Source: a virus
Virus record (IMG/VR): IMGVR_UViG_3300035034_002228
Coordinates: 1 to 64,000 of that record
DNA: 64,000 bases
Strand: one strand, 5' to 3'
Below, piece after piece: positions 7,429-30,710 of the stretch. Below the pieces are notes generated by a model that saw only the letters and a list, made by a program, of their open reading frames with translations, ran no database searches and was not told the DNA's origin. A program made the translations under genes and the position numbers. How positions within the stretch are numbered: position 1 is the stretch's first letter; each line of letters opens with the position of its first letter.

Positions 7429-7480
7429 TCTCAAACCATTGATCAGCCTACCAGCCCAAACGCCACGTAAAGGAGAGGTT

Positions 7481-9127
7481 ATGGCTACTGTAAACACAAC
7501 CGGTCTGTATGAATTTGATCCATACGGCACCAATCCTGATAATAAAATACCGGGTGAACTGCAGTCACTGCAAGTCCCCGGTCGGGACGACTACTATTTC
7601 ATCATCCCAAAAGCGGCCCCGTTCTTTGTCGACGGTTTTGAAATTGTGGACCACGACACTGGTCGTCCATACCTTGAAGGGCGTGATTTCCTGTTCGGGC
7701 ATTATTTCCCAGAAGGGTCGGACGCAACGGGTAAGGCCCTGGCCGGGTCGTTGCGATTCCTGAGTCGCGACATCACCGGCATCGTCCGAATGACATACCA
7801 GACCATCGGTGGCCATTGGGGTTTTGACGATCAAGCTGTGTTGGAGGAATTGTCCAACAAGGCAATCAACCCACTGACGCGAGCGTGGAGTCAGATTGAC
7901 ACATTGCCTGCGTTGTTCCCACCAATACCGCACGACCAAGGTACGGGAGAACTCATTGGGTTTGAAGAAGTGGTTGAGGCCATTGGGGACATTGAACGGG
8001 CATTGGGTGACACCGAAGCTGGAACCGTAACCGACCACATGAACAGTCGGGAAAACCCACACAACGTCACCAAGACGCAGATTGGGTTGGAGTTTGTGCA
8101 GAACTACCCCATGGCTAACCTAGCGGAAGCGGCGGACGGTCTTCGGAGCGATCGGTATATGTCGCCAAAGACGACCGATGCGGCGGTTGTGTCGGCGGTT
8201 GATCGTGAGATTGAAAAACACCTGAATGTCGATAATCCCCACGGCACGAATAAAGCCGATGTCGGTTTGCCCCTGGTTCGGAACTTTGGGATCGCCACCG
8301 AATCCACCGCCTACAACGCGACACGTAACGACCAATACATGACACCGTACTTGGTTGGCGTTGTGCTTCAGGCTTTGAAAAGTGAAGTTCTCGACCCGCA
8401 TTTTAACGATACCAACAACCCGCACAACCTGACCGCAGCCGATATTGGTGCGATCAACATGGAAACCATTACCGCCCTGTTGGAAAACTATCTGTTAACA
8501 AACGGCACCGCTTACGACACCGCCCGGACGTTTGGGATGAACCTGGAAGGACTTAAGCAGGAAATCTTGCTGGGCACTGCCGCGAATTCCGAAATGCTGG
8601 AAGGACAAACTTACGGGGAAATCAAAGACGACCTGTACACGCAGTTTGTGTACTTCACCACCTACACGTGGGAATACACCACCGGCGATTACTTGGGTCG
8701 TCAGGAACACCTCCCGTTTTACACCATGACGGAAACCACAGAACCGCTGGTATTGATCGGGAACGTACTGGGCACCGAAGGACGCCGGGCGTTGGTGAAC
8801 ATTGAAGTGGACTGGACCACCGAGGCGGTGAACATCACCACCCTCAACGGGATTCCCCCACTGAAAGATTTTGCCATGCGGGTTATCGGGACTGGGGCCG
8901 ATAAGGCCATTGAGTTGTCCTTGGATGTTCACGAAGTGCCCGTTACCCCAATCACGTTCATCCCCGTTCATCAACCCGACGGTCAATTCCTGCCCGATCC
9001 ATCTAGCGTTGGTCCAAACCATGGGAACGGACGTACGGCGGTTCCGGCAGTTGGTGCCGGTGCACAAGACGTCACCGATACATTGATCGAGTCCTTTAAT
9101 GCGGCGTCCGATCAACTGGAAGCTTAA
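7481..9127 (+). CDS. Tail-fibre-like virion protein (phiKZ-type N-terminal baseplate anchor)
   Basis: ATG 7481 with AGGAG RBS. N-terminus YEFDPYGTNPDNKIPGE...PKAAPFF and three NPHxxT(K/N) fibre repeats. Confidence 0.7.
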   Translation: MATVNTTGLYEFDPYGTNPDNKIPGELQSLQVPGRDDYYFIIPKAAPFFVDGFEIVDHDTGRPYLEGRDFLFGHYFPEGSDATGKALAGSLRFLSRDITGIVRMTYQTIGGHWGFDDQAVLEELSNKAINPLTRAWSQIDTLPALFPPIPHDQGTGELIGFEEVVEAIGDIERALGDTEAGTVTDHMNSRENPHNVTKTQIGLEFVQNYPMANLAEAADGLRSDRYMSPKTTDAAVVSAVDREIEKHLNVDNPHGTNKADVGLPLVRNFGIATESTAYNATRNDQYMTPYLVGVVLQALKSEVLDPHFNDTNNPHNLTAADIGAINMETITALLENYLLTNGTAYDTARTFGMNLEGLKQEILLGTAANSEMLEGQTYGEIKDDLYTQFVYFTTYTWEYTTGDYLGRQEHLPFYTMTETTEPLVLIGNVLGTEGRRALVNIEVDWTTEAVNITTLNGIPPLKDFAMRVIGTGADKAIELSLDVHEVPVTPITFIPVHQPDGQFLPDPSSVGPNHGNGRTAVPAVGAGAQDVTDTLIESFNAASDQLEA

Positions 9128-9140
9128 CCGGAGGTTTTAA

Positions 9141-10070
9141 ATGTCAGTCATTGTCAATAAGTACCCATTGGATCTGACGGGTAAACGTCCGGACAACTAT
9201 ATTCCGGGCGAGCGTCACGATCTGGATGCGGCAGTCACCACGGGTAATTACCGTGTGTTCGTGCCAAACTACGGTGGATTCTACACGCAGGACATGGTTG
9301 TCCGCGATGTGTCGGGTACCCCGTTGCGTAAAGGGGAGGATTACATCGCCACATACCTCTATGAACGACCGACCCTGAGGAGCGGTCTGGAAGTGTGTGG
9401 TGCGGTTGTTATTGTTAACCCCAACGTGTCCACCACAGTGTTCATGGACTACCAAGTGGTGGGGGGCGACTTCGCGGTTTCCACCGACGCCCTGCAGCAA
9501 GTGCTCAACACTTTGGCCGAAGAAGATCGGCCGGTTGAATGGGCCAACATCATTGGAAAACCGAACGAGTACCCCGCCGCTGGACACCTACACGCTCTGT
9601 GGGAACTGTACGGATTCGAACCGGTTGTCACCGAACTGGAACGGATTACCCAAGCGATCATGGCAGGCGATCAAGCCCTGCATGATGAAACCCGTGCGTA
9701 CGCTCTTACGCTGTTTGAAGAAGCCGGTGAAGCGCGGGACGCGCTGGAACGTCGCTTGGTTGACCACATGGAAGACGGGACCAATCCCCACGACGTGACG
9801 AAAGCACAAGTTGGGTTAGGTGACGTTGAGAATTACAAGATGGCCACCGATGTCCAAGCGGCCGCCATGGACGTCAAAACGCGTTACATGTCACCCCATG
9901 CGGTGGGCGTGGCCCTAGCCACACACGCCAATCCGAACGTGAATCACCACGACGGTCGGTACGTGAGAATCAGTACCACCGAAGAGACAAGCTTGCGGGT
10001 AAACAACAATCGACTTCAAGCCTATGTTAATGGCGGTTGGAAAACGATTTGGCCGGCACAGTGGGTGTAA
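9141..10070 (+). CDS. Short tail-fibre-like protein, paralogue of the preceding gene
   Basis: YPLDLTGKRPDNYIPGE N-terminus, GHLH motif, NPHDVTKAQVGLGDV repeat and C-terminal YVNGGWKTIW cap. Confidence 0.7.
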   Translation: MSVIVNKYPLDLTGKRPDNYIPGERHDLDAAVTTGNYRVFVPNYGGFYTQDMVVRDVSGTPLRKGEDYIATYLYERPTLRSGLEVCGAVVIVNPNVSTTVFMDYQVVGGDFAVSTDALQQVLNTLAEEDRPVEWANIIGKPNEYPAAGHLHALWELYGFEPVVTELERITQAIMAGDQALHDETRAYALTLFEEAGEARDALERRLVDHMEDGTNPHDVTKAQVGLGDVENYKMATDVQAAAMDVKTRYMSPHAVGVALATHANPNVNHHDGRYVRISTTEETSLRVNNNRLQAYVNGGWKTIWPAQWV

Positions 10071-10090
10071 ACCCACTGCTGCTTTTTTTT
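10059..10090 (+). terminator. Intrinsic terminator closing the fibre operon
   Basis: CAGTGGGT-GTAA-ACCCACTG followed by T8. Confidence 0.85.
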
Positions 10091-10148
10091 ACTTGGTGGC
10101 CTGATCGTATAGTAGTGACATTCATTCGATTTTAAACGAGGACGTACC

Positions 10149-11285
10149 ATGCGTGAATTGATGGTCTACCTGAAAACTACCGAAACCTGTCAGTTAAACT
10201 GTCAGCACTGTTTCACCAGTGGTACTAACGGTAAGAAAGGATGGTTTGATCCCGAAGCCACCGTTGACTTCTTTAAACGATTGAAGCAGCAGTTTCCAAC
10301 GTATCGTTCCGCCAACATCTCGTTCCATGGGGGCGAGCCGATGCTCTGTCCCTTGGAGAAAATGGAATACGTGTTCGACGAGCTTGACGGTTTGTGGGAC
10401 AACTTGAGTTGGGGGATTCAAACCAACCTTACCTACAAGCTGACCGACGAACGTTTGGCGTTCCTCAAGAAAGTTTCCGGCACGTCCATCGGCACGTCAT
10501 GGGACTACAGCATCCGGTGGCAAGGCAACCGGAATCAAGAAGCTCTGTGGGAAGAAAACGTCCGTCGCCTGGTGGCAGAAGGCATCGACGTTACGGTCAT
10601 GATTTGCGTATCCAAAGACTTGATGGAAGTGGAACCCATTGACGTCATCAACAAGATGATTGATTTAGGGGTAAACTTCATCAACTTCGAACGGATCACT
10701 GAAAACGGAAACGCCCGTGAGAACACCGGTATTTTCCCCACCAACTTGGAACTCGATGCGTGGTTCCTTAAAATGTGGGAACAAACACTGGAACATAAAG
10801 CGTACGAACGAATTCTGAATATGTTCGTTGAGAGTCTACTGACCAGTACCGTCTTTAATACGTTCTCTGGATGCCGCAGTCGTGAGTGCGAGCAGAAGAT
10901 CCTCACGTTGAACGCGGACGGGACCATCGGTGGTTGTCCCAATGGCGCCCCGGAAACAACCTTCGGACGTCTGGATCAAACCATAAACGAAATCGTATTT
11001 TCCGAAGGTCGTGGTTGTAACATCGCCAATGAAAGTACCTTGAACGAGGTGTGTTACACGTGTGATGTGTTTGATGTGTGTAACGGCGACTGTCACCAAC
11101 TTAACTGGCATGGGGATATCTGTGCTTCACCCAAATCCATGATGCGGGCAATGAAAAACACCAGCCAGGAGCAACTGCGGGAAGTACTTAATGGATTCAT
11201 GGGCGACGAAGGCATTCGGTACGAGAAAGAACCGTCGGCACTGACCATCGACCCAAACACCATCCCGATTGTGGAGGTTACCTGA
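10149..11285 (+). CDS. Radical SAM/SPASM enzyme 1
   Basis: CQLNCQHC (CxxxCxxC), HGGEP, and C-terminal IGGCPN...CYTCDVFDVCNGDC...C auxiliary-cluster motif. Confidence 0.92.
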   Translation: MRELMVYLKTTETCQLNCQHCFTSGTNGKKGWFDPEATVDFFKRLKQQFPTYRSANISFHGGEPMLCPLEKMEYVFDELDGLWDNLSWGIQTNLTYKLTDERLAFLKKVSGTSIGTSWDYSIRWQGNRNQEALWEENVRRLVAEGIDVTVMICVSKDLMEVEPIDVINKMIDLGVNFINFERITENGNARENTGIFPTNLELDAWFLKMWEQTLEHKAYERILNMFVESLLTSTVFNTFSGCRSRECEQKILTLNADGTIGGCPNGAPETTFGRLDQTINEIVFSEGRGCNIANESTLNEVCYTCDVFDVCNGDCHQLNWHGDICASPKSMMRAMKNTSQEQLREVLNGFMGDEGIRYEKEPSALTIDPNTIPIVEVT

Positions 11286-11286
11286 C

Positions 11287-11829
11287 ATGGCGGATTTAAA
11301 ACGAAGTGATTTTCACGCAGCCGTAAATTCTAATATTAACCAGTATGCCAAGGATCAGGCTCGATGGTGGAAGGGTAACGGCAGAAGCGGAAGTTATATG
11401 AACAACGGACCCCTGGTGTATTTGTCCCATTTCGATCGTGGGACTTCGGCAGCGACCGGGGATGCCGATGCCAGTAACGTGGTGGCTGTTATTAAAGCCG
11501 AAGCCGAACGTTGTACCTCCATGCGGAAAGTGTATACAGCCCGTTATTATTCGGGAAGTTATTACGGAAATGGGGACCGGCGTAAAGTCCGGGGCATTGC
11601 GGCCTTGAACTCCAACTACAGCCAGTCCATTTACAGTTTGAAAACGGCAGGTGGGCACCCCAACTACGTGTCCACAAATAACAACGCCGATTGGTCGAAT
11701 TTGAGTGACCTAATCCAATCCGTTCAAGACGATCTGTACGACAAAATCCACAAAAGCGGTGTTGTGGATTTGTCGGTTTGTCATTCAAAGTGTCATGGTA
11801 ACTGCCATTCCTCAAGGAATAGACGATGA
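11287..11829 (+). CDS. 180-aa protein with C-terminal (CHxx)3 motif; putative radical-SAM substrate
   Basis: ATG 11287 with GGAGG RBS. Ends DLSVCHSKCHGNCHSSRNRR and has an S/N/G/Y-rich body. Confidence 0.7.
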   Translation: MADLKRSDFHAAVNSNINQYAKDQARWWKGNGRSGSYMNNGPLVYLSHFDRGTSAATGDADASNVVAVIKAEAERCTSMRKVYTARYYSGSYYGNGDRRKVRGIAALNSNYSQSIYSLKTAGGHPNYVSTNNNADWSNLSDLIQSVQDDLYDKIHKSGVVDLSVCHSKCHGNCHSSRNRR

Positions 11830-12896
11830 TACGATTACTGAAAAATCTGACGCTGGATTACAGCTTTTCAAGTCCCAGTGGAATGGCTGACCCTAAGGAC
11901 CTCGTGTATATCAATTACCTGGGGTCTAAAACGTTCTCTGCCGACTCAGAACCTTTAATGAAATACCCCAAGTTAGACGTTCTGTTGGATGCGCCGGGCG
12001 GGCTCAATGATTTTTTAGAAACGGTAGTCCTCAGTGGTCGCTCCGTTACTGCGTTTGTGGACGAGATCGATTTAAATCGTTTCTACGTGCATTTCCTCAG
12101 AGGGGTGTTTCCAAACATCACACTTGAGAACACACATCGTTTATTGCGACTCACGGTAGTGGATCAGAAACACAGCCAAACAAACCGGTCGACAAAAGTG
12201 GCGGTAAATCGGGAGGGCAAGCTTGGTCTTACCTTACCGACCCCAATGCAGACTCGAATTTGGTTTGAAGGAGCAGCCAAACAGAACGAGTTCTCAGACA
12301 CGGTGAAAGAAAACGTCTCCATTGAATATTTGATGTTAAATGCATTGGCCGTCAACTACGATCCACACGACCCATTCGTGGTGTATTTCCGTGAGCGACT
12401 GGATGACCTGTTATGGGACATGCTGACGGCGGATTACACAAAACGACGTCGGAAGTTACTGTTGGGTATCTTTAAGTTAAAAGAAAACTTAGATATCGAC
12501 ATCGACCCGTTTGCCGACGACCTGGAGTCTCAAATCGCAGAGCTGGACGCAAAGCTCGGGCTGGACGGTTCTATTAACGAGAAGACAGCCGCCAATGCAC
12601 AACGAATTCACAACACGATCGTGTCGATCAACAAAAAGAACGGCATTGTTGAGGATTTTAAAGAGCTTATTGCACGCTTCTTTTTAAACGACCATGGCAT
12701 CACGCATGACGAGTTTGTTGAACTGATCAAAACCGACCGGCGTCAACCATGGAGTGCTTTATTCGGGCGCAATAAAATGCTGCGTGGTACTGGTTCGCTA
12801 ATATTCAGTTATCTACACAGTGCTACAGCTGATAAACTCTCTGACATGCGTCTGACAAACACAGAGGAAAGTGATCATGCTTCACTTAATAGATGA
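11826..12896 (+). CDS. Unknown protein, paralogue A of a triplet
   Basis: ATGA overlap with the upstream stop. Shares SIEYLM..L...DPFV..F...LW and S.LFGR blocks with the next two ORFs. Confidence 0.75.
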   Translation: MIRLLKNLTLDYSFSSPSGMADPKDLVYINYLGSKTFSADSEPLMKYPKLDVLLDAPGGLNDFLETVVLSGRSVTAFVDEIDLNRFYVHFLRGVFPNITLENTHRLLRLTVVDQKHSQTNRSTKVAVNREGKLGLTLPTPMQTRIWFEGAAKQNEFSDTVKENVSIEYLMLNALAVNYDPHDPFVVYFRERLDDLLWDMLTADYTKRRRKLLLGIFKLKENLDIDIDPFADDLESQIAELDAKLGLDGSINEKTAANAQRIHNTIVSINKKNGIVEDFKELIARFFLNDHGITHDEFVELIKTDRRQPWSALFGRNKMLRGTGSLIFSYLHSATADKLSDMRLTNTEESDHASLNR

Positions 12897-13917
12897 CATC
12901 CGAGCGGACTTTTCATTCACGTCCATCGGACTCAAAAAACCAACCGATACGTTCGTTTATTTAGACGATCGAACGCACACCTCAGGGGATCACCATTTTG
13001 AGGGTGTGATGGAGTTTGATGGGTTGAAAGACGCAATGGATCAATTTGGGGATTTACCTACCTTGATTGAGACAGTGTTGTTGCTGGAAGGGGACGTCTG
13101 GTTAATGCTAGACCCTGACGACATGTACCAGCTGGTTGTAACACACTACCGTTCGATCTACCCGGAGTTGCCAATCGATGTGGTTCATGCGGTTCTGAGG
13201 ACGTTTTACATCCACCACCGTTTTGTGCGTGTTAAAGGGTTTGCTTACGACCATTACTCAGAGCAACTCCCCCTGCCGACCTGGGAAGACACGGAACGGC
13301 TCTACGCGAACTCCAGACATGGGAATGGGTACAGCAACGAACTCAAGAAACATTTGAGCTATGAGGTCTTGCTGGCACACGCCCTGAGTGTGGACTTCGA
13401 CAACGACGACCCGTTCGTCACTCAGTTCGCCAAAAACATCGAACGGATGTTGTGGATTTCCTGTGCCCGCGATTTTGTGAAACGGCGGATGACTGCATTC
13501 GACAACGGCTTTCAACTTAAACAGACGTTGGATCTCCCGCTCAATTTTGACCGTAACGACATTGAACGTCAGTTAGAGGTTCCGGTGGTGAAACGGTTCT
13601 TCAACCCCGACGTCACCTACAAAGATGTTGAGGCGATCAAAGCCGATTACGACTACGTCAGAAAAATGATAGCGAAGGTGGACGCACTGGTGGGTTACGG
13701 TGACGCGTACAACCCATCGCTTTTTGATTTCCTAGACCCAGGTCGTTCCTTTACCGGGTCGGTGGTAAAAGGGTTGGTTGAACTCGATCAGGAATCGTTG
13801 TGGTCCTTTATGTTTGGCCGGGAAAAACTGACCAAAGACACAAACGGGGTGTTTGTTAACTACCTTTACACTTTGGATCGAGAACAACTGACCCACTTTA
13901 CATTGAATGGTGCGTAA
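12877..13917 (+). CDS. Unknown protein, paralogue B of a triplet
   Basis: MLHLIDDIRADFSF...SYEVLLAHAL..DF..DDPFV..F...MLW...SFMFGR. Confidence 0.75.
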   Translation: MLHLIDDIRADFSFTSIGLKKPTDTFVYLDDRTHTSGDHHFEGVMEFDGLKDAMDQFGDLPTLIETVLLLEGDVWLMLDPDDMYQLVVTHYRSIYPELPIDVVHAVLRTFYIHHRFVRVKGFAYDHYSEQLPLPTWEDTERLYANSRHGNGYSNELKKHLSYEVLLAHALSVDFDNDDPFVTQFAKNIERMLWISCARDFVKRRMTAFDNGFQLKQTLDLPLNFDRNDIERQLEVPVVKRFFNPDVTYKDVEAIKADYDYVRKMIAKVDALVGYGDAYNPSLFDFLDPGRSFTGSVVKGLVELDQESLWSFMFGREKLTKDTNGVFVNYLYTLDREQLTHFTLNGA

Positions 13918-13919
13918 AC

Positions 13920-14954
13920 ATGTTGCATTTGCTGGACAAGGTCTACGTTGATTACGACTTTACTGGAAACATTGGTCGCAACAACCTAATCTACGTAGGT
14001 CCCATGGGTATGTTGAAACACACCCACGGTCCGAAACCGCTTTATCAGTTTCCTTCATTGAATACCATCGTTCGGGAATTTGGTGATATACCAACGTTTA
14101 TCGAATGTTTGACACCCCTCGGACAGAAGACCATTATTTTAATGGACGAAGGTTCGATGAACCAATTGCTGGTAACGTGGCTTCGTTCGGTCTTCCCTAA
14201 GATAACCGCCAAAATGGTGCACCGTTTTTTAAAGTTAAACGCAGTGAACCATAAGTACGAACACGGAAGTCGCACCAGTACCAAAGGTTCTCGGAAAGAC
14301 GGGTTTCGAAACCTCACGATTCCCACGTTGGACGATGTTGAGGGAATGTGGAACGATCTGAAAGCGGTTCCCTTGTCCATGGAGCTCAAAGAACGGGTGA
14401 GTTTTGAGTACTTACTGGCACACGTGCTTCTGATGGACTTCCACCCGACCGATCGGTTTGTGAAAGCATTCGTTCAGCGCATGGAGACCATCCTTTGGAA
14501 GTCGGTCGCTTGGGATTTTGTTGGTGTTCGGCGGGACTTACTGTACGGCATGTATAATCTGAAAGAGAACTTTGGTTTGGGTGTGGACTTAGAACAAGAC
14601 GACATCGATGACCAAATTGAAGCCCTTGAGGACACGGTGTTGTTTAACCCAGACAACCATCCTGGGAATGTGGAGTTCATCAAAGACAACCATGCGGCCA
14701 TCCGTGAAATGGTCGAAAAGGTCCATGCAATGAATGGCACGACTGACCCTTTCTTGAATCAGTTGTTGCGGATTTTGCCCAACGGGGTGTTCACTGAAGT
14801 TAAAGCCAAAGAACTGATCGACGAAGACCGGCGGGCGCATTGCAGTCAGATCTTTGGTCGAACGGAGTTTCGGGACAACATGAACAATAACTTCATTGGG
14901 TATCTGTACCGTGCCTCCTGGTCCGAACTCGAAAAAATGAATCTTAACGAATGA
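13920..14954 (+). CDS. Unknown protein, paralogue C of a triplet
   Basis: MLHLLDKVYVDYDF...SFEYLLAHVL..DF..TDRFV..F...ILW...SQIFGR. Confidence 0.75.
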   Translation: MLHLLDKVYVDYDFTGNIGRNNLIYVGPMGMLKHTHGPKPLYQFPSLNTIVREFGDIPTFIECLTPLGQKTIILMDEGSMNQLLVTWLRSVFPKITAKMVHRFLKLNAVNHKYEHGSRTSTKGSRKDGFRNLTIPTLDDVEGMWNDLKAVPLSMELKERVSFEYLLAHVLLMDFHPTDRFVKAFVQRMETILWKSVAWDFVGVRRDLLYGMYNLKENFGLGVDLEQDDIDDQIEALEDTVLFNPDNHPGNVEFIKDNHAAIREMVEKVHAMNGTTDPFLNQLLRILPNGVFTEVKAKELIDEDRRAHCSQIFGRTEFRDNMNNNFIGYLYRASWSELEKMNLNE

Positions 14955-14963
14955 GGTAATCAC

Positions 14964-15656
14964 ATGATCACAGTACCCCTGCCCATGAAAGAACTGCACG
15001 AGGTCATCAGTGACAACAGCAAAGTCTATGATGTCGATTACAGCAACTCCAAGATCAAAGGGAAGCCGTTCGTTTTCTATCTGGCCAACCTGAACGTGAA
15101 GACACGGATTAATGTCGAGACACTGACCAAAGAAGAACTCAAAGAGCTTCTGGTGATATACATGACGATCAACACACCGTTCAAGTGTGAAGAACTCAAC
15201 GTCTTGGTCATGTTGACGTTACTGCACTTCATGGAGGGCGATACGTCGGGAATAACCACTTTTGATTTACCCGACGGGTTCTTGGACGAATTCGTTGAGG
15301 AGAACCAAGATCTCATGGCTCGGTATTTCCTCTTTTGTTCTTCAATGATCAAATACTGCGACTACATTCGAAGTATCTCGGATGACAAAGAGCCCGACCT
15401 TCGCGGTTACGATGGGACCATTGACGACCCGAAATACATTGGGGTGAATGTGGTGTGGCTTTTTGAGATCCCTTCGTTCTTCGAGCTGTTCTTTTCGGCG
15501 CGGGACCCTCAGGACTACCCACAAGTGTACTTCCCGGTTCAGTTTGAAGAGTACATGTTCAATGGTAAGAACTTGTTTTACTTCTTCGTGGGTGATAAAG
15601 AAAACCCCAACTGGTTGCTTCTGAACAAAACCGCACTGGAGAAATTACATGACTGA
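14964..15656 (+). CDS. Unknown acidic protein of the radical-SAM cassette
   Basis: 230-aa ORF with GAGG RBS, overlapping the next radical-SAM gene. Confidence 0.7.
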   Translation: MITVPLPMKELHEVISDNSKVYDVDYSNSKIKGKPFVFYLANLNVKTRINVETLTKEELKELLVIYMTINTPFKCEELNVLVMLTLLHFMEGDTSGITTFDLPDGFLDEFVEENQDLMARYFLFCSSMIKYCDYIRSISDDKEPDLRGYDGTIDDPKYIGVNVVWLFEIPSFFELFFSARDPQDYPQVYFPVQFEEYMFNGKNLFYFFVGDKENPNWLLLNKTALEKLHD

Positions 15657-16653
15657 GAACATGGAAAATCTGATCCCACTGGTGGAGCTAGTGGAAGCGA
15701 AGCGGGGACCGAATAAAGAATTTTTTATCAACTTCTTTGAACGGTGCAACTTGCAATGTGGTTTTTGTTGGCAGGACCATGACGACTGGACAGGGGTTGA
15801 CCAAATCGTTGAAAAAGCCGAGTTGGTGATCAATAACACAAATGACCACGACTTCTACAGTGTGAATGTCATGGGTGGGGAGTTGTTCATGGACGAACTC
15901 CCCGATAGTGTGTTTGACGATTACTTAGAATTCTGCCGTCGGGTTGTGGTGTCGGTGAAACACTGCGAGATAAACTTTGTCACAAACCTGGTGTTCGAGA
16001 AAACCGAACGTGTTGTTCGGTTTGTGAAAACGTTGGAAGAAGCACTGATACCTTTTACGTTTTGCACGTCGTACGATGTGTCGGGCCGTTTTAACACAAA
16101 AACGTTTGCCACGTTTGAACGAAACCTCGCGGTTTTCAAACCATGGCTTTCCAACATCTCAGTGGTGTTGACGCGCCCCAACATCGAACGGTTCATGCGT
16201 CGTCCCGATGTGGCGCTGGATCGCCTGTACAAGGAATACCCGATTTTCTTTGATTACTATTCCCCCGAAGACAACGTCGAGGTACTTCAACCAACGGATG
16301 TGGAGCTGGTCGACTTTTACCTATGGTTAAACGAAAACTACCCGGAGAGTCAACCGATCAAAGCCTTTCGGGAGAACCAGCACAACCCAGCAACGTGTCG
16401 GAGTTCGTTCATCATCCTACCAACCGGGATGACCGGCTCGTGTAGAGTGTTGGCGGACCGCGACCAGTTTAAATCGGACCCAACTGTTGTGGATAACATC
16501 CATGAGTCGGAAGCACGGTTCATTCAGGAACGGGAGTGTTTGAGTTGTGAGTTCTACCAGAAATGCGGGTTGGGATGCTTTCTTCACAGCGACCATGTGA
16601 ACATCACCAATAAACACTGCGAGTTCAAACGACTATATGGAGAACTCGCGTGA
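15649..16653 (+). CDS. Radical SAM enzyme 2 (Cys-rich C-terminal domain)
   Basis: CNLQCGFC, MGGEL and C-terminal CLSCEFYQKCGLGC...C. Confidence 0.9.
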   Translation: MTENMENLIPLVELVEAKRGPNKEFFINFFERCNLQCGFCWQDHDDWTGVDQIVEKAELVINNTNDHDFYSVNVMGGELFMDELPDSVFDDYLEFCRRVVVSVKHCEINFVTNLVFEKTERVVRFVKTLEEALIPFTFCTSYDVSGRFNTKTFATFERNLAVFKPWLSNISVVLTRPNIERFMRRPDVALDRLYKEYPIFFDYYSPEDNVEVLQPTDVELVDFYLWLNENYPESQPIKAFRENQHNPATCRSSFIILPTGMTGSCRVLADRDQFKSDPTVVDNIHESEARFIQERECLSCEFYQKCGLGCFLHSDHVNITNKHCEFKRLYGELA

Positions 16654-17633
16654 GCATTGAAAAATTCAATTCATTTGAGTTGCAGTTAGAAATACTGGCT
16701 GGGTGCGCGTTTAACTGCGTCGGGTGTCACGTCGATCGGGAGTCCCCAAACAAAGCGACCGATAAGATGTATCGGGTAGCCTACGAGTTCTTAGAACAAG
16801 TCGACCCCTACGCTGTTGTGATAGGGAGTACCGACATCTTCACCGCCACCAATACCCTGGAAGTCTTAAACGACATCCGGTTGACCGAACTGATAAAACG
16901 GTTTGACCGACTGGTGGTTAACTCCACCATGGTGAAGCCGAACACGGCTGTACTGGACGCCATTACACGCTTGGGTATGAAGGAAGTTCAAGTGAACATC
17001 GTGATTCCCGAATCGAAGAACTTAAACGAGCGGTACAACACTGTGGTGTCCGAAAAGGTCCGGGAAGTAAAGGAGCGCTTTCCAGATTTGATCCTACATC
17101 CGCAATTGAACCTGAGCGGTTCATTGACCGTTGACAACTACGAAGAGTTGAACGATTTCTACATACGTCACTACGGACAAGGTGTGGATTTCAATCTGTC
17201 GTTTGCTCGCACCAGTTCGGACCCGAATAAGTATCGGGCGGCGTTTGATTGGCTGAAAAAGGTTACGGCAACCACCAGTGCCACCGTTGATGGATGTATG
17301 GATGGCCAACACGTGGATGTGGTCAGTCCCCACGACAAGCTGGAACGGGTGATCATTTTCTACGAAAACGAATTCTACGCCATCCCCATCGTTTACGAAG
17401 ATCTTATTCAAATTCGCGAACGTTATCGGATATCTGGACTCGATGAATACCGTAAGAAATACGATACGGTGGTTTTAGAGCAGTATGCCTACACGGTAAA
17501 AACCGATGAGTGCGGTGAGTGTCCATTTCTACCGACATGTCTTGACCATCGTGTTTTGGCGGTTATGGAAGATTACGACATCACCAGCTGTATACTCCCC
17601 AAGGAAACCATTGCCAGAGTCAACCAGTGGTGA
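16650..17633 (+). CDS. Radical SAM-like protein 3 (divergent)
   Basis: CAFNCVGC, with the GGE motif replaced by GSTD. C-terminal CGECPFLPTC...C. GTGA overlap with the upstream gene. Confidence 0.8.
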   Translation: MSIEKFNSFELQLEILAGCAFNCVGCHVDRESPNKATDKMYRVAYEFLEQVDPYAVVIGSTDIFTATNTLEVLNDIRLTELIKRFDRLVVNSTMVKPNTAVLDAITRLGMKEVQVNIVIPESKNLNERYNTVVSEKVREVKERFPDLILHPQLNLSGSLTVDNYEELNDFYIRHYGQGVDFNLSFARTSSDPNKYRAAFDWLKKVTATTSATVDGCMDGQHVDVVSPHDKLERVIIFYENEFYAIPIVYEDLIQIRERYRISGLDEYRKKYDTVVLEQYAYTVKTDECGECPFLPTCLDHRVLAVMEDYDITSCILPKETIARVNQW

Positions 17634-17641
17634 CGGAATAA

Positions 17642-17676
17642 AACACCCACGGTGCAAGTCCGTGGGTGTTATGTCG
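17642..17676 (+). terminator. Internal hairpin/terminator of the radical-SAM cassette
   Basis: AACACCCACGG-TGCAAGT-CCGTGGGTGTT followed by ATGTCG. Confidence 0.7.
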
Positions 17677-17743
17677 ACTTCTATTTGTTTTCAACGCATG
17701 CGGCCAACTATATAGTCTTTTATTCACAGGTCGGAGACCCGTA

Positions 17744-18784
17744 ATGGATTTGATCATTAAACCAACCGAACTCTGTAACTTCGCCTGCACGTTTTGCAGT
17801 TCTACCAGCATTACCGACAACAAAACCGATGTATTAAACCTAGACTACATTGCCCGTTTTCTAGACCGGTTCCCGGAAACTAACACCATCATTGTCAATG
17901 GCGGCGACCCATTGATGCTCAAGCCGGATTATTACTGGGACATCCTTAAGCTATTGGAAGAACGGAACATGACGGAAACCATCGTTGGTTTTACCACCAA
18001 CCTCTGGGATTTCTACAAGCGCCCTGACAAATGGACCGAACTATTCCGTCATCCCCAGTTCTCTGTGTGCACCTCCTTCAACTACGGCGACAGTCGACGT
18101 ATCAGTAAGAATCGTGTTTTCACCGAAGCCGATTTCTTGGCCATCAGCGACTTGTTTCTTGAACGTGTGGGTTACCGGCCAGACTTTATTTCCGTCATTG
18201 ACGAAGACAATCGCGATACCGCCATTGACAATGTCCGATTGGCTAAACGTCTTGGGGTGGAATGCAAACTGAATTTGGCCATGGTCAGTGGTCGCCAAAA
18301 AGAACCGTTCTTGATCTCCGACGTACACGAACTTTACCTTGAGATCTACGACGAGGGGCTCATGCCGTGGGAGTACAACACCAAACAGATGGTGAACGCC
18401 CTTAATAGTTACCACACCACTTGCCCAATCAGCCGTGACTGTGACACCGGTATCCGTAATATTCACCCCAATGGCGAGTACTACAGTTGCGGTTCCTTTG
18501 GGGACGATCGGAAGTTCCCCATCGATTTCAATAAAGAGATGGAAAGTGACACCATCGCCACGCCCTTGTCCAAAGAGATCACCATGCGGTCCATGCATGA
18601 CGGCTGTTTTGGGTGTGAGTTGTTTGCTCTGTGTAACGGCTGTCGAAAAACCATCCGTGACACGCAACAAGCAGGGCTGGTTGAAAAACATTGCACCACA
18701 ATGACCGCACTCAAACCAAGACTGTTGGAAGCGGCGGAGAAAGAACCATACGCGGTGGGAGGACTGAGTGATAGTATCGATTAA
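17744..18784 (+). CDS. Radical SAM/SPASM enzyme 4
   Basis: ATG 17744 with GGAG RBS. IKPTELCNFACTFC, NGGDP, CPISRDC...YYSC...CFGCELFALCNGC...C. Confidence 0.92.
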   Translation: MDLIIKPTELCNFACTFCSSTSITDNKTDVLNLDYIARFLDRFPETNTIIVNGGDPLMLKPDYYWDILKLLEERNMTETIVGFTTNLWDFYKRPDKWTELFRHPQFSVCTSFNYGDSRRISKNRVFTEADFLAISDLFLERVGYRPDFISVIDEDNRDTAIDNVRLAKRLGVECKLNLAMVSGRQKEPFLISDVHELYLEIYDEGLMPWEYNTKQMVNALNSYHTTCPISRDCDTGIRNIHPNGEYYSCGSFGDDRKFPIDFNKEMESDTIATPLSKEITMRSMHDGCFGCELFALCNGCRKTIRDTQQAGLVEKHCTTMTALKPRLLEAAEKEPYAVGGLSDSID

Positions 18785-19667
18785 CCCGTTGTACCGGTGT
18801 AACTTCCGGTGCAGTAACTGTTACCTAACTGAGGAACAGCTTCGGTCACGCGCTTTGTTGGACTTAGAGCAGTTAGACCGACGCTTGGCGGACATACCCG
18901 AGATTGACGCGGTTGAACTTTATGGAGGCGAAGTCACTTTATTAGACGAGAGCTATGTTAACGACCTTAAAGGTGTGGTACGTCGGTATTACGACGGTCC
19001 GATCTCCGTGACCACCAATAGTTACCAGATGCCGGAATGGATTTATCACGACGACATCGACGTCAACGTCTCTTACGATTTCAATCATCGACCACACCAC
19101 GAACAGGTGTTCACGAATCTGTTGGTTTTCTCCAGGCCGGTGAACGTTATTGTGTTGGCCACGCCAGAAGTAATGGCCGACGATGTAGACCAACAGATCG
19201 AACTAATACGCTCTCTGGTGAATTTGAACTCGGTTGAAATCAAACCTTACAGTCCAAACCAAGCCAACGATCGCGGGAACCGTAACCAAGACTACGTAGA
19301 GTACGTCAAACGCTGGATACGCGGTTTCCCTAATAATCGCTTGCGTAACAGCGCCTTGTTGAATGAGGTGGCTGACGGGGTCCGTAATGCCTTCTCCGAC
19401 GACCACGTGTACATCACGCCCGAAGGAAAGTTCGGGGTGTTGGAATTCGACGAATTCGACCGCGAATACTTTCTCCAGTTGCCGGATTTTAAAGCCTACC
19501 AGCAATGGACCAAGAACGAAAAACACAAATTGCTATCAGAAATATGTCGGGCGTGTGAGTTTAAAGGTAGGTGTTTGACCGAACATTATCGACGGAAGGA
19601 AGGTCTGGATGGGGAATGTAGTGGGTACAAATCGCTCATCGAGTGGTGGTTGGGTCGAGCGGCTTAA
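18768..19667 (+). CDS. Radical SAM enzyme 5
   Basis: INPLYRCNFRCSNC, YGGEV and C-terminal CRACEFKGRC...C. Confidence 0.9.
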   Translation: MIVSINPLYRCNFRCSNCYLTEEQLRSRALLDLEQLDRRLADIPEIDAVELYGGEVTLLDESYVNDLKGVVRRYYDGPISVTTNSYQMPEWIYHDDIDVNVSYDFNHRPHHEQVFTNLLVFSRPVNVIVLATPEVMADDVDQQIELIRSLVNLNSVEIKPYSPNQANDRGNRNQDYVEYVKRWIRGFPNNRLRNSALLNEVADGVRNAFSDDHVYITPEGKFGVLEFDEFDREYFLQLPDFKAYQQWTKNEKHKLLSEICRACEFKGRCLTEHYRRKEGLDGECSGYKSLIEWWLGRAA

Positions 19668-20031
19668 ACGCTTTCATCTCAACGGTGTTAAAACAGACTA
19701 CTTTGGGGGACACTACAACCCATGTGTCATAGTCAGCGCGGTAAAAATGATCAATGGCGACTGTGAGGCCCTTGAATTCCCCGCCAAGAGTTATTTGGTG
19801 GGGATCTGCTACGCCGACTACATCGCGCGGTATTTCAACGTGGATTTTTACGAGGTACTTTCCCACCCAACGTTGTTGCACGACGATGAGCATTTCGTTC
19901 CATATAACGAGGCGACAGCCCCGGTTTATGAGACGCTACTCCCAATGGTGTTGTCAAACGACTTCCGCACTACGGAGTTGTACGGTGTCATCATCGGGTA
20001 CTGTGAAGAAGAACTGGGACTGACTGAATGA
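19609..20031 (+). CDS. Unknown protein of the radical-SAM cassette
   Basis: 140-aa ORF with GGAAGG RBS filling the gap between radical SAM enzyme 5 and the oxygenase gene. Confidence 0.6.
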   Translation: MGNVVGTNRSSSGGWVERLKRFHLNGVKTDYFGGHYNPCVIVSAVKMINGDCEALEFPAKSYLVGICYADYIARYFNVDFYEVLSHPTLLHDDEHFVPYNEATAPVYETLLPMVLSNDFRTTELYGVIIGYCEEELGLTE

Positions 20032-20039
20032 GGTGATGT

Positions 20040-20609
20040 ATGAGCAGTGAGGCAATGTGGCCAACTTTTATCGAAACCCACGATCTTAGTGATGATTGCG
20101 ACTTGGATCAGGCCGTGACTGAATGCTTAATGGTGTCCAATACACTTCAGGACAAAAACAACCTACCCTTAAAAGACTGAGGTACACCCGAACTCCACCG
20201 TATCCACGAAGAGTTAATCATGCCGTTGTTCTACCAACACTTGGAAAGGCGTTACCAATTCAAACCGGAAGGGGTGTCGGTGGCCAATTGGATCTTCGGT
20301 GGGAACGACGGCAGTGGCCTGGAACCCCACATCCATTCGGGTTCGCATTTTACGGCTGTTTTTTACCCAATGGTCGTCGGTGGTAGTATTGTCATGGTGG
20401 ACCCGCGATACAGTGCACAACGTGGATATCCTCGGGATTTCATCGACGGTCATTTTGGGAAGAAGAAGATCAACCCAACCGCCGGTCAATTGGTAATCAT
20501 GCCCAGTTTCCTTGAGCATTACGTCACCGGCTTTAAACAGGGACTGCGTTTGTCATTTGTAAACGACATCATTTTACGCACCGACGACGGTGATGTCCAT
20601 TTCGATTGA
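20040..20609 (+). CDS. 2OG-Fe(II) oxygenase (TIGR02466-like) with in-frame TGA at codon 47 (readthrough, pseudogene or sequencing error)
   Basis: ATG 20040 (GAGGTG RBS) reads MSSEAMWPTFIETHDL..., TGA at 20178-20180, then the same frame continues into the 20220 ORF with PHIH..HFTAVFY, PSFLEHYV and RLS motifs. Confidence 0.75.
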
Positions 20610-20646: not shown

Positions 20647-20839
20647 TTCCAGACGCATTGACGTGTCTTATCTTATGACAAATTTTATTCATTGGAAGGT
20701 AAGCGACGTGAGTGGTATGTCCGTTTCTTTTAATTCTTGATGTCCTGACCTTGGCCCAACCGATTTCATTACGCACATAGTAGTAATACCAAACACCATA
20801 ATTGTCTGTGAACGTTCATTAACCAGGGAGCTTTACCCA

Positions 20840-25418: not shown

Positions 25419-27476
25419 ATGACTACACCGCAAAAGATTTCTGATCTGCAAATCGCCGGTCAGGTTAAGAACGACGATTACGTTGAAGTAATCCAACGCA
25501 ATGCCGAGGGCGACTACGTCAACATGCGTTTGGCGATCAATAACCTCAAAGGCAAAGACGGCAAGTCGGCGTTTCAATTGGCCAAGGACGACGGGTTTAC
25601 CGGCACCTTTAACGAATGGCTTCTGTCCCTGCGTGGCCCGGAAGGCAAAAACCCGTTTGACATGGCTCAAGCCGGTGGGTTCACCGGTACTCAAGAAGAG
25701 TGGTTGGCGTCTTTGGTAGGGCCTCAGGGCGCTCCGGGTCCCCAAGGTGAAGCAGGTCCGCAAGGCCCGGAAGGTTCTGTGGGACCGACCGGCCCTGCCG
25801 GTCCGAAAGGCGAAGCCGGTGATGCGGGTCCCGTCGGTCCCAAAGGCGAGGTTGGTGACGCTGGCCCAGCGGGCCCGAAAGGCGACGTAGGTCCTGCGGG
25901 ACCGGAAGGCCCTCAGGGTGAAACGGGTCCGGCTGGTCCCATCGGACCTGAAGGCCCAGAAGGCCCCCAGGGCACTCAAGGTCTCAAAGGGGACCAAGGG
26001 GAACCTGGCCCGACGGGTCCGACGGGTCCAGTTGGCCCCAAAGGGGATCGTGGTCTGGAAGGTCCAGCAGGTCCGGAAGGTCCGCAAGGCGAACAGGGCG
26101 AAATGGGTCCAGGCATTAGCATTGTCGGGACACTGACGGCTGAATCCGAACTACCCGACACCGGCACGCTGGGTGAAGGTTATTTGGTCAACGGCGAGTT
26201 CTGGGGTTGGACCGGCACTCAGTACGAAAACCTAGGACCCATTCGTGGTCCTAAGGGTGAACAGGGTGTTCAAGGACCCGCTGGACCGGAAGGGCCCGAA
26301 GGCCCGCAAGGCGACATGGGACCCGAAGGTCCGGCTGGCGCTACCGGTCCCAAGGGTGATAAGGGTGACGCTGGCACAGTCGGGCCGAAAGGCGACGTAG
26401 GCCCTGCCGGCCCTGAGGGTCCCCAGGGTGAACAGGGTGTTCAAGGTGAGAAAGGTGACAGTGGTGACCCCATTCAAATCCTGGGTACCGTCGCCGATCA
26501 ATCTCAGCTTCCCTCCACCGGTGTTTCTGCCGGCCAGGGTTACGTCATTGGCACCAATCTGTGGGTGTGGGACGGTGCGGCGTGGTTTAACGCCGGCAGC
26601 TTGAAAGGTCCTCAAGGTGAACAAGGTCCGATGGGCCCTGCCGGTGTCAAGGGTGACGACGGTGCTCCAGGTCCTCAGGGTCCTGAAGGTGCTCAGGGTC
26701 CCCAAGGTAACACCGGCCCTGCCGGTCCGACTGGTCCTAAAGGTGATACTGGCGACGCCGGTCCCGCCGGCCCTGAAGGCCCTGCCGGATCACAAGGCCC
26801 TGCTGGCTTTGATGGCGCCGATGGTCAGTCCGCGTATCAGATTGCCGTGGACAATGGTTTCACAGGCACTGAGGCCGAATGGTTGACCTCACTGGAAGGC
26901 GAAGACGGTGTCGGGTCGGCACTGTCCATCGCGAATAACGGCACGGCTGTTACCGCCGAGGCGAAATCCATCAACTTCAAGGGCGCCACGGTTTCTGAAA
27001 CCAACGGTGACGTTACGGTTGAAGTGTCGGCCAGTAGCGGTGGGTCAACAGGCGGTGTAAGCCTCGTACGCAAACGCGCGGTGTTGATGCGCGGGTCCCT
27101 GGAGGCGATTGTCATTGTGGTTGGGTTTGGTTCTCAGACCGACATGGACGCCCTGACCATTGAAAAACTGAACAGCGGCAGTGTGGTACGTCTGGACAAC
27201 AAAGCCGCTGCGCTCCACTTACATTCTGTGACCATATTTTATGATGCAGGATGGAACACCGGTAGCTCGTTCAATCTTCAATTCCCGGACAACTGGGGTG
27301 ATGATTTCATGGGCGACATGGTGATCCCCACGTTCCAGCAGTTCTCTCGGTTGAATCCGCCGACACTGCAACCGACGACTTACCAGAACTACGAAGTCGT
27401 TGATGGTTACGTGAATGTTGGTAAAGCCAACGTTAACTCCAGCTACGGATATCACTGGAAGTACAACTTGTCGTAA
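25419..27476 (+). CDS. Collagen-like fibre protein 1
   Basis: Long Gly-X-Y runs interrupted by small W-rich domains and SA(F/Y)QxA..GFTGT..EWL repeats. Confidence 0.85.
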
Positions 27477-27540
27477 ACACCAGCGTCATTGGGGTAGTGA
27501 TCTTCAATGAATGCTACCTCAATGAAAAAAGGATTGTCAA

Positions 27541-28254
27541 ATGTCAAAACTACATTTTCAGGCCACCATTGACCTGAAGAGTGCAATCCCGGATGGTGAG
27601 GCGTGGGTAGTCCAAATTGGCTTTCGGGACGGCGAAGGGTACTTCCGTCCCAGTCAACTCCAGGCGAGCGATGTCATTGTACTGAACACGGGGGCACTTG
27701 AGCCCGGAACGTACACCCAGTACAAGATCAACGAAGTGATCAATGTCAGCTGGACCGGTGAGATCGAGTTATCGATTCAATACCTAGACGGCAACAACAA
27801 CGACATTGCTAACCCACAACTGGATTACCTGGTTGGCGCGGTAGGTATCGTATCACGTCCCAGCGAACACTTGGGGCTTTTACCAGTCGTGTCGCCCGAT
27901 GTTCAGGACATGAGCGACGCGTTCAGTATTTACACGTTGAACCACAACATCGTGAAACTGCTGGACGCACCTCGGTCTGACGGTGGGGGTGGTGGTGTTG
28001 TCCTTAAAACAGCCCAATGGTTGCCCGTTATGGCTGACGGTCGAGCCCCACTCCCAACCGAGCCTCTGGGGGACTTCGTACTGGACATGGGCATGGCGCA
28101 TCTGTTGGATGGGTCGGTGGTTGAGTTGTCTGGAGTAAAACCCCAGTTCAATGCCGAAACATCCACATGGTATGCAGTGATCCCCGCAGCAGACATTGCT
28201 GAACTCCAAGGAATGGTGGGTGCTATCACTGTGTCTTACCTAACCGGTTCTTAA
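27541..28254 (+). CDS. Hypothetical protein of the fibre cluster
   Basis: 237-aa ORF with AGGA RBS. Confidence 0.65.
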   Translation: MSKLHFQATIDLKSAIPDGEAWVVQIGFRDGEGYFRPSQLQASDVIVLNTGALEPGTYTQYKINEVINVSWTGEIELSIQYLDGNNNDIANPQLDYLVGAVGIVSRPSEHLGLLPVVSPDVQDMSDAFSIYTLNHNIVKLLDAPRSDGGGGGVVLKTAQWLPVMADGRAPLPTEPLGDFVLDMGMAHLLDGSVVELSGVKPQFNAETSTWYAVIPAADIAELQGMVGAITVSYLTGS

Positions 28255-28286
28255 AACACAATCTTTGATATTTCAGGAGCAATAGC

Positions 28287-29282: not shown

Positions 29283-29329
29283 TGGGTACTAGCGGTATCG
29301 AGGGTACCGCTAAACTGTAGTTAAAATCT

Positions 29330-29389
29330 CCTGAAGCTAACGTGGGAAAGGCATCTAAATGGCCTCCTGCGTTAGCTTCAGGTTTATGT
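29330..29389 (+). terminator. Long hairpin (13-bp perfect outer stem) followed by TTTATGT
   Basis: CCTGAAGCTAACG (29330-29342) pairs with CGTTAGCTTCAGG (29370-29382). Confidence 0.65.
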
Positions 29390-29410
29390 GTTCATTAGTG
29401 GAGAGATACC

Positions 29411-30178: not shown

Positions 30179-30194
30179 CACGAGGGACTGATTT

Positions 30195-30707: not shown

Positions 30708-30710
30708 CCC

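Follow-up and report, generated by a model that had tools for sequence, protein, structure and literature searches.

Radical S-adenosylmethionine (SAM) enzymes that modify peptides and proteins are known from several systems. In the bacterial His-x-Ser (HXS) system, according to the accessible part of its description (Li et al., Nat Commun 2026, PMC13128918), HxsB, HxsC and HxsD mature the His-x-Ser protein HxsA, with a change of +8 Da on SHRSS. Other points of comparison are the anaerobic sulfatase-maturing enzyme (anSME; TIGR03942, PDB 4K36-4K39), the SPASM-type maturases for ribosomally synthesized, post-translationally modified peptides (RiPPs), among them DarE, DynA, CbpB, PapB and the triceptide cyclophane synthases, and, as far as its accessible text goes, a protein-scale thioether enzyme of methanogens that serves as a radical-SAM comparison case (PMC13692751). 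Here, we describe a block of 12 genes at positions 10149-20609 of a 64,000-nucleotide stretch of viral DNA (hereafter the window; positions 1 to 64,000 of IMG/VR virus record IMGVR_UViG_3300035034_002228), which encodes five putative radical-SAM enzymes and a protein that ends in Cys-His repeats. An earlier inspection of the letters alone (the sequence-only reading) had drawn attention to the block, which is not peculiar to one phage: it is a version of a widespread gene kit that is found in predatory bacteria too. HXS is the closest studied analogue of the kit, but, as judged by family profile scores, the kit is a member of neither the HXS nor the anSME families.

The open reading frame (ORF) list confirmed 12 co-oriented (+ strand), mostly abutting or overlapping genes in the block. 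Their order is enzyme 1, tailed protein, paralogues A, B and C (together, parABC), unk230, enzymes 2-3-4-5, unk140 and a 2-oxoglutarate (2OG)-Fe(II) oxygenase of the PF13759 family:

10149..11285, + strand: radical-SAM enzyme 1, 378 residues; PF04055, 34.4 bits; TIGR03942, E 4.6e-18 over residues 10-318; phrog_1802, 1.4e-54
11287..11829, + strand: Cys-His-tailed protein, 180 residues, candidate substrate; 180-residue relatives begin at the same Met
11779..11826, + strand: tail of this protein, C-H-S-K-C-H-G-N-C-H-S-S-R-N-R-R; stop codon directly after (to 11829)
11826..12896, + strand: paralogue A, 356 residues, unknown family; start ATG overlapping with the preceding stop codon; identity of 29% to paralogue C and 25% to paralogue B
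12871..13917, + strand: paralogue B, 348 residues; paralogy by BLAST; no Pfam family
13920..14954, + strand: paralogue C, 344 residues; paralogy by BLAST; phrog_36207, 1.2e-05
14964..15656, + strand: unk230, 230 residues, core kit protein; phrog_20767, 9.4e-36; orthologues in four cultured lineages
15649..16653, + strand: radical-SAM enzyme 2, 334 residues; CxxxCxxC and CX2CX5CX3C; PF04055, 20.1 bits; phrog_1802, 5.3e-32
16650..17633, + strand: radical-SAM enzyme 3, 327 residues, divergent; PF04055, 19.7 bits; phrog_31457; reduced C-terminal Cys set
17747..18784, + strand: radical-SAM enzyme 4, 345 residues; PF04055, 42.5 bits; DynA, 5.7e-13; anSME, 3.8e-10; the ORF opens at 17666
18768..19667, + strand: radical-SAM enzyme 5, 299 residues, twitch-like; PF04055, 29.8 bits; reduced C-terminal Cys set
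19609..20031, + strand: unk140, 140 residues, core kit protein; phrog_20737, 1.6e-14; 19-member alignment with 9 invariant columns
20040..20609, + strand: 2OG-Fe(II) oxygenase gene (PF13759), 189 codons; interrupted by an in-frame TGA at 20178-20180 (codon 47)

As had been claimed, five of the translations carry a CxxxCxxC motif near the N-terminus; the enzymes have 7 to 33 residues ahead of it (for enzyme 4, counted from ATG 17747). The PF04055 gathering cut-off of 29.5 bits is exceeded by enzymes 1, 4 and 5, while enzymes 2 and 3 fall below it. Since the latter two have the CxxxCxxC motif, match PHROG families and have orthologues annotated as radical SAM, they were counted in, and all five proteins are accordingly assigned to the radical SAM superfamily. 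Clusters of C-terminal cysteines, recognized by eye, follow the pattern CX2CX5CX3C in enzymes 1 and 2; enzyme 4 has CX2CX5CX2C, and enzymes 3 and 5 have only CX2CX5C. The SPASM profile TIGR04085 describes a C-terminal motif of seven Cys that binds two auxiliary clusters; against it, enzymes 1, 2 and 4 scored 26.7, 17.1 and 21.5 bits, respectively, under the cut-off of 27 bits. The best NCBIfam matches of enzymes 1 and 4 were to anSME, DarE, CbpB and DynA, all of them far below the family cut-offs, and this ranking supports the idea of SPASM/anSME-type modifiers of peptides or proteins. A Pfam scan of the five enzymes detected neither PqqD (PF05402) nor another recognition domain. Enzyme 4 is the best conserved enzyme of the kit, and its only PDB sequence match is a weak one to the anSME chains 4k36-4k39; a PDB search with enzyme 1 gave no match. 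The start of enzyme 4 is probably ATG 17747, because a tblastn query begun there aligns from residue 1 or 2.

The 180-residue protein with a (CHxx)3 tail, which the sequence-only reading had singled out, is confirmed, and its start at ATG 11287 agrees with that of close relatives. The tailed proteins of the window and of phages RSL2, DT01 and Atu_ph07 are 17-34% identical overall, and all end with C-H-x-x-C-H-x-x-C-H-x-x-R-x-R-R. Beyond close relatives, the body of the protein is 12-26% identical to the window copy with C, H and R of the tail unchanged, and these positions are invariant in alignments of the family. In 157 distinct tails, Ser occupies the fourth place of repeats 1, 2 and 3 in 138, 125 and 136 cases, respectively, and Gly is found at the R-G-R-R place in 139; these tallies cover positions that the tail search pattern (see below) left free. 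Further Cys residues are absent from 107 of the 157 proteins. As read from these alignments, the family motif is (C-H-x-S)x3-R-G-R-R. A contig from salt-lake metagenome run X2 has A for T at window position 11809, by which the free x in repeat 3 becomes Thr instead of Ser; the fixed residues are intact.

With a profile of 63 members of the tailed-protein family, 890 representative clusters were matched at E<=1e-3; of these, 696 reach <=1e-10 and 150 reach <=1e-30. Since most of these matches span the full length, the body is a conserved domain as well. Relatives were sought in Pfam, PDB and the ESM Atlas by member scans and with the profile, and none were found apart from single chance-level Pfam matches; hhalign detected no relation of the protein to the fibre C-terminal domain described below. 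An uncultured tailed protein gave no tblastn match in cultured phages, for which the low-complexity filter is possibly responsible. Some loci contain two tandem tailed genes of ~130 residues, some tails have four or more repeats, and one member of the family is fused behind a Gly_rich_2 domain. Long Cys-His arrays with short spacers, followed by R-G-R-R, were also noticed in P0093 (nine C-H units) and, in similar form, in L152, a 4.3-kb contig of a Dysosmobacter isolate assembly.

How does the kit compare with HXS? What the two share, going by the accessible part of the HXS paper, is a set of several radical-SAM enzymes with a small partner, a full-size target protein, a basic repeat array and a product that is (or, in the kit, would be) protein-bound. 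The consensus of the phage-tail family also holds H-x-S three times, and the window copy holds it once. The proteins themselves are different: the HxsB profile (TIGR03978) gave 28 bits against a cut-off of 370 and the HxsC profile (TIGR03977) 27.3 bits against 267.9, an NCBIfam scan detected no HxsA match at E<=0.1, and no HxsD (TIGR03976) match was found in the 81.8-kb record. Further, the kit tail has a Cys before each His and sits at the extreme C-terminus; HxsA-type effectors are exported and processed at the N-terminus and have a peptidoglycan-binding domain, but a crude hydropathy scan revealed nothing resembling a signal peptide in the tailed protein, and no Pfam family, hence no peptidoglycan-binding domain, was found in it; four to six enzymes are encoded instead of two; and the kit is found beside fibre genes in phages and predators, not in a defence locus. 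unk140 was considered as an HxsD-like protein and dropped, since hhalign against HxsD from genome G282 returned a probability of 0.1%. The locus of G282 (L173) is a typical HXS locus with hxsD (113 residues) directly before the gene of a 494-residue SPASM enzyme, and among 300 genomes scored from the class to which G001 belongs, one had HxsD.

anSME is the best family match of enzyme 1 and, as a SPASM enzyme acting on Cys or Ser of a folded protein, resembles what is proposed here. In the sulfatase motif C-x-P-S-R, moreover, Cys, Ser and Arg are placed as in the last tail repeat C-H-x-S-R. However, enzymes 1 and 4 score 65.4 and 39.4 bits, respectively, where membership of the family requires 349.45, no sulfatase was found among the genes scanned, the tail motif has no Pro, and there are four or five enzymes rather than one. 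The SPASM maturases of RiPPs are of the same class as the kit enzymes and likewise have a candidate substrate gene beside an enzyme gene, but the kit enzymes score far below their cut-offs and have no PqqD or recognition domain. Unlike in a classical RiPP cluster, the "core" is invariant, the "leader" is a conserved domain of ~165 residues, and there is no protease or exporter. By its gene content, the kit is therefore not a classical RiPP cluster.

Searches by tblastn with enzyme 1, unk230 or enzyme 4 all retrieved the same 15 phage records. The carriers are RSL2, RSF1, FLC phages, S13, RsoM3USA, DT01, Atu_ph07 and Phosso, and the annotated regions have the same gene order. In RSL2, DT01, Atu_ph07 and Phosso, BLAST recovered one-to-one orthologues of enzymes 1, 2, 4 and 5 (39-48%, 34-37%, 47-51% and 38-44% identity, respectively), unk230, unk140 and the tailed protein, with no BLAST match for unk140 in Atu_ph07. 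Enzyme 3 has only distant relatives, ~22% identical, in RSL2 and DT01, and none by BLAST in Atu_ph07 or Phosso. Judging by these identities, each orthologous enzyme is an old, separately maintained lineage, so that the enzymes are more likely to catalyse distinct steps than to be redundant. The core kit is therefore made up of enzymes 1, 2, 4 and 5, unk230, unk140 and a predicted cytoplasmic tailed protein of ~180 residues. All seven genes are present in the window in the defining order (enzyme 1, tailed protein and unk230, then enzymes 2, 4 and 5 and unk140), and the window departs from it by the three paralogues inserted before unk230. Atu_ph07 and Phosso have genomes of ~470-490 kb and are not phiKZ-like; the kit has thus moved between unrelated phages. 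No description of the kit or of the tail motif was found in the literature searched, and in the accessible text of the papers on FLC6, S13 and the relatives RP12/RP31, kit genes appear only as annotations.

The link between enzymes and tail was followed into uncultured viruses with a DNA pattern of the tail. Searched against IMG/VR, it retrieved at least 119 contigs (~0.02 expected by chance) with at least 140 ORFs that end in the tail. In the 119 listed loci, hidden Markov models of the kit genes, built from five cultured or window copies, detected unk230 at 98, enzyme 1 at 88, enzyme 2 at 62, enzyme 4 at 38, an enzyme-3-like gene at 34, enzyme 5 at 26, the oxygenase at 20, a parABC-like gene at 20 (with weak E-values) and unk140 at 16; since the loci are short, these counts are floors. 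As a guard against ascertainment through the tail, a second sample of 80 loci was drawn through unk230, and 78 of these had room upstream. The ORF just before unk230 ended in a variant of the tail in two of the 78 and was a parABC-like gene, as in the window, in five. It ended in the full tail in 71, and kit genes lie beside the tail at 116 of the 119 listed viral loci, so that the co-occurrence of the enzymes with the CHxx protein, on which the sequence-only reading had staked its interpretation, is observed in both samples.

Outside its core, the kit varies. Carriers have four to six enzymes, and variable extras comprise a fifth, divergent enzyme family, parABC (tripled in the window), cupin/JmjC genes and PF13759 oxygenases. 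In kits of the RSL2 type, the stretch between enzymes 2 and 4 contains two genes without counterparts in the window, one for dihydrofolate reductase and one unknown (RSL2 locus 18030-18566). In a 222-kb relative (G312; L178 2428-3348), two intact oxygenases follow unk140, and then comes an ORF that looks ketoacyl-synthase-like by eye. A second architecture was seen on 20-60-kb viral contigs (L005, L029, L038, L069, L089 and others), where two tandem tailed genes of ~130 residues and an unk230-like gene are accompanied by three to six enzyme-3-like copies; where more DNA is available (L071, L090), enzymes 1, 4 and 5 and unk140 are present as well.

The same tail pattern, run on contigs of one genome per species, retrieved 47 bacterial stretches. 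An ORF ending in the tail is present in 39 of these, with adjoining kit genes in 36; one of the three tail ORFs without kit genes is a low-complexity chance match in an actinomycete, and another stretch, L166, has kit genes and no tail ORF. Groups of Bdellovibrionota are named in 27 of the 47 record titles, and unk230 was found in nine of 251 sampled Bdellovibrionota genomes, two of which had been seeded. On Bdellovibrionota contigs of 1.29 and 2.84 Mb, the whole kit lies among housekeeping genes (serine dehydratase, class A penicillin-binding protein, lysyl-tRNA synthetase and a helicase). Its neighbour is a 408-residue protein with an S74 endosialidase chaperone domain in one of these two genomes and a 2355-residue Big_2/RCC1 protein in the other, and S74-like genes adjoin the kit at five further of the 47 genome loci and at one viral locus. 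The MAT proteins of Bdellovibrio, according to the accessible part of the paper that describes them, form phage-like trimeric adhesin fibres, many of them S74-ended (Caulton et al., Nat Microbiol 2024, PMC10769870). The likeness consists in adjacency only, S74-type genes adjoining the kit in six Bdellovibrionota genomes, and the accessible text of PMC10769870 differs in containing no mention of radical SAM (0 occurrences).

The window is part of an 81,795-base virus record with a completeness estimate of 27%, and no near-identical DNA was found among cultured phages. The record is phiKZ-like, as had been proposed: its 917-residue structural protein has its nearest relatives (~46% identity) among the virion proteins of PhiPA3, PA1C and Noxifer. 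On either side of the block are genes for internal-head, baseplate, RuvC-like and spanin proteins; large ORFs were also noticed at 25419-35297 of the window, the biggest one of 1528 residues (30711-35297). The G+C content of the block (positions 10001-20000) is 0.47-0.50, compared to 0.53-0.55 in the flanking structural genes, which is in line with an acquired module. Directly before the block are the following features:

7439..9127, + strand: tail/fibre-type protein, 562 residues; phrog_13857 tail protein, 1.6e-117, and several tail-fibre PHROGs; upstream of the kit
9141..10070, + strand: second fibre-type protein, 309 residues; phrog_2163 virion structural protein, 4.3e-97, and tail-fibre PHROGs; paralogue of the 7439-9127 gene
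10059..10078, + strand: terminator-like hairpin, then a T-run; 8-pair stem with 5 G-C pairs; consensus match only

The PHROG matches thus agree with the earlier assignment of two tail-fibre genes just upstream of the block. Terminators had been claimed at both of its ends; the scan recovered the 5' hairpin and, for the 3' end, nothing but a weaker candidate at 20651-20668. With 13 terminator-like sites, the region has no more of them than shuffled sequences (15.1).

The fibre context, which the sequence-only reading had put forward for checking, recurs: fibre genes lie upstream of the kit in phiKZ-like relatives and in hand-picked uncultured phages. Homologues of the 7439-9127 gene precede the kit in DT01 and RSL2, and in Atu_ph07 and Phosso a >13-kb gene of a virion structural protein is located a few genes upstream. 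At seven phage loci chosen for a large + strand ORF upstream of enzyme 1, seven of eight such ORFs end in a shared domain, phrog_22593, and five of seven also match tail-fibre phrog_19602; phrog_22593 is not matched by the upstream fibre genes of the window. One of these ORFs has collagen repeats and a weak match to the Peptidase_G2 chaperone, and in a hand-picked phage locus, a 201-residue JmjC/cupin ORF lies between the fibre gene and enzyme 1. For Atu_ph07, 131 virion proteins were detected by electrospray ionization tandem mass spectrometry, the majority of them in clusters of coding sequences 31-76, 170-215 and 284-329, according to the accessible part of the report (PMC6102473). The tailed protein of Atu_ph07 is gp170, and RefSeq numbers match those of the paper for gp181, gp198, gp204 and gp215. 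As can be seen, the cluster 170-215 begins exactly at the tailed gene and excludes the enzymes gp165-169. This boundary suggests that the tailed protein was detected in virions.

The partner proteins have few relatives outside the kit. The three unknowns following the tailed gene had been called paralogous, and their mutual identity of 25-32% (E 4e-31 to 2e-51) bears this out. A HAD-like DxDxT at the N-terminus of paralogue C was dropped as a candidate motif, being not conserved in the family alignment. PDB searches gave no relatives for unk230 and unk140 and only matches at E>0.3 for parABC; Pfam has none for unk230, and scans of all members of the unk230 and parABC alignments returned only single chance-level matches. 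The ESM Atlas offered nothing usable for unk230 and paralogue C (Atlas model pTM, i.e., predicted template-modelling score, 0.23), and hhalign detected no relation between unk230 and parABC.

The sequence-only reading had also counted the oxygenase as a tailoring enzyme. This is not supported here, since the gene is broken by the in-frame TGA. PF13759 matches the distal 129 residues with 32.1 bits (cut-off 27). When X is placed at the TGA, the translation aligns across the break, over 179 residues, with an intact 193-residue homologue (35% identity, E 2e-33); frames of homologues in four related records are open over 187-242 residues, and ATG 20220 could restart a 129-residue product. Two salt-lake metagenome runs, of low depth and one possibly the source sample, showed no other letter at the TGA. 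No cupin gene and no second PF13759 gene were found in the 81.8-kb record, and an oxygenase-based search for related loci yielded 31 pattern matches, none of which was confirmed. Because there is no cupin, the sole oxygenase is broken and the tail has one His-x-Ser, oxygenase steps seem dispensable in the lineage of the window. The window has four peculiarities: parABC is present in three copies ahead of unk230, a cupin is missing, the oxygenase is broken, and the tail has lost the Gly and two of its Ser. Taken together, they suggest ongoing loss of the oxygenase branch in this salt-lake lineage.

We reasoned that the enzymes of the kit may modify the Cys-His tail of the candidate substrate protein. 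This is favoured by the class of the enzymes, by the tailed gene's fixed place behind enzyme 1, by Cys, His, Ser and Arg staying invariant in the tail while the body drifts, and by the precedent of HXS; the proposal is the likeliest of those considered here, but we nevertheless regard it as an evenly balanced call. Each orthologous enzyme would use a 5'-deoxyadenosyl radical for one step on the tail. Since the enzymes have no N-terminal recognition domain, delivery of the substrate may fall to unk230, unk140 or parABC, a part that HxsD plays for HxsC. With no gene for proteolysis or export in the kit, the product would be expected to remain protein-bound. Thioether and cyclophane cross-links are known to join Cys and His, and the tail would be compatible with such links or with an anSME-like oxidation of Cys. 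The modified protein would then act together with the fibre or adsorption apparatus encoded nearby, possibly as part of the virion; the attachment apparatus is suggested as its site of action by the fibre or adhesin genes that repeatedly adjoin the kit in two sorts of bacteria-killing carriers.

Several observations weigh against this reading. The kit is accessory: its 15 carrier records, 12 of them phiKZ-like, compare with 290 phage records that match the 917-residue structural protein of the window. The tail of the window is an outlier, with K and N for two of the three Ser, N for Gly and a single H-x-S kept, and the same record has the broken oxygenase and no detected cupin gene. RiPP cores are usually variable, and the tail is invariant; an invariant Cys/His tail fits the binding of a metal or of an Fe-S cluster as well. 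The fibre count at the seven phage loci is biased by the way these were chosen, and full inspection of Bdellovibrionota contexts covers two genomes only. Finally, in the RSL2 and RSF1 records, the fibre neighbour is listed as a virion structural protein, whereas the tailed protein is only hypothetical.

The metal-binding properties just mentioned lead to an explanation in which the enzymes act on another protein, a fibre or virion protein, and the tailed protein carries metal or Fe-S clusters, relays electrons or serves as a scaffold for the enzymes' numerous clusters. With a spacing of four, the three Cys and three His would line one side of a helix and suit a metal; a ligand site could be expected to be as invariant as the tail is; no neighbours of the kit are as regular as the fibre genes; and five enzymes with, going by their Cys patterns, up to three clusters each would need much Fe-S. 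Yet the tailed gene directly follows enzyme 1 in most loci, and precursor genes usually sit beside an enzyme gene; tandem tailed genes and tails of four or more repeats look like a substrate array. In addition, the upstream fibres belong to differing families (phrog_22593 is found in none of those of the window and in seven of eight elsewhere), so that no common second substrate is visible, and we consider a helper role of this kind unlikely. Should the tail be the substrate, it could still be cleaved off and released as a small peptide or cofactor, as in RiPP or pyrroloquinoline quinone/mycofactocin-like pathways, with the 165-residue body as an oversized leader. An invariant core is typical of peptide-derived cofactors, the enzymes are SPASM-type and oxygenases are frequent extras; but family scans of the 12 genes found no peptidase, exporter or nucleotide enzyme, in agreement with the sequence-only reading, and the annotated RSL2, DT01, Atu_ph07 and Phosso blocks have no protease or transporter either. 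The body, homologous over its full length across the 150 listed representatives, looks like a conserved domain rather than a loose leader, which leaves release of the tail quite improbable.

A further explanation places the kit in host takeover or counter-defence, the basic matured tail acting at the envelope or on DNA and mirroring or opposing HXS-like defences. The two systems have a logic in common, since in HXS, according to the accessible part of PMC13128918, radical-SAM-matured, basic His-x-Ser repeats block phage DNA entry; the kit tail ends in R-G-R-R, and the kit is an accessory set with a patchy distribution among phiKZ-like phages. We give such a function only a slim chance, since the kit lies in a late structural region in the same orientation as the fibre genes, is chromosomal in predatory bacteria beside genes of fibre or adhesin type, and showed no family-level tie to HxsA, B, C or D in the profile searches, and since its tailed protein has no stretch resembling a signal peptide. 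Least probable of all, in our view very much so, is an action of the kit on nucleic acids (DNA or RNA) or on a small metabolite. In its favour, nucleotides and cofactors are among the substrates of radical-SAM enzymes, MoaA, QueE and viperin turn up as weak matches low in the lists, and a dihydrofolate reductase gene is found inside blocks of the RSL2 type. Against this, the best matches are all to maturases of peptides or proteins, the kit has no kinase, glycosylase, transferase or nucleotide-binding gene, and an action of this kind would not account for the close linkage with an invariant peptide tail.

Returning to modification of the tail by the kit enzymes, one can go a step further and propose that the kit rebuilds the tail into a reactive or metal-binding group that arms the fibre-based apparatus of phages and Bdellovibrionota for attaching to, or breaching, bacteria; we offer this extension tentatively and consider it doubtful. 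If true, it would amount to an undescribed covalent, enzyme-made maturation of a virus particle or predator organelle, in which four to six radical-SAM reactions would act on a single motif of 16 residues. Its carriers range from jumbo phages, both phiKZ-like and Rak2-like, to small marine phages as well as Bdellovibrionota, and the cultured carriers RSL2, RSF1, FLC6, S13, DT01, Atu_ph07 and Phosso make the kit experimentally tractable. The kit would then be a phage-side counterpart to HXS defence and would provide a new substrate motif for radical-SAM enzymology.

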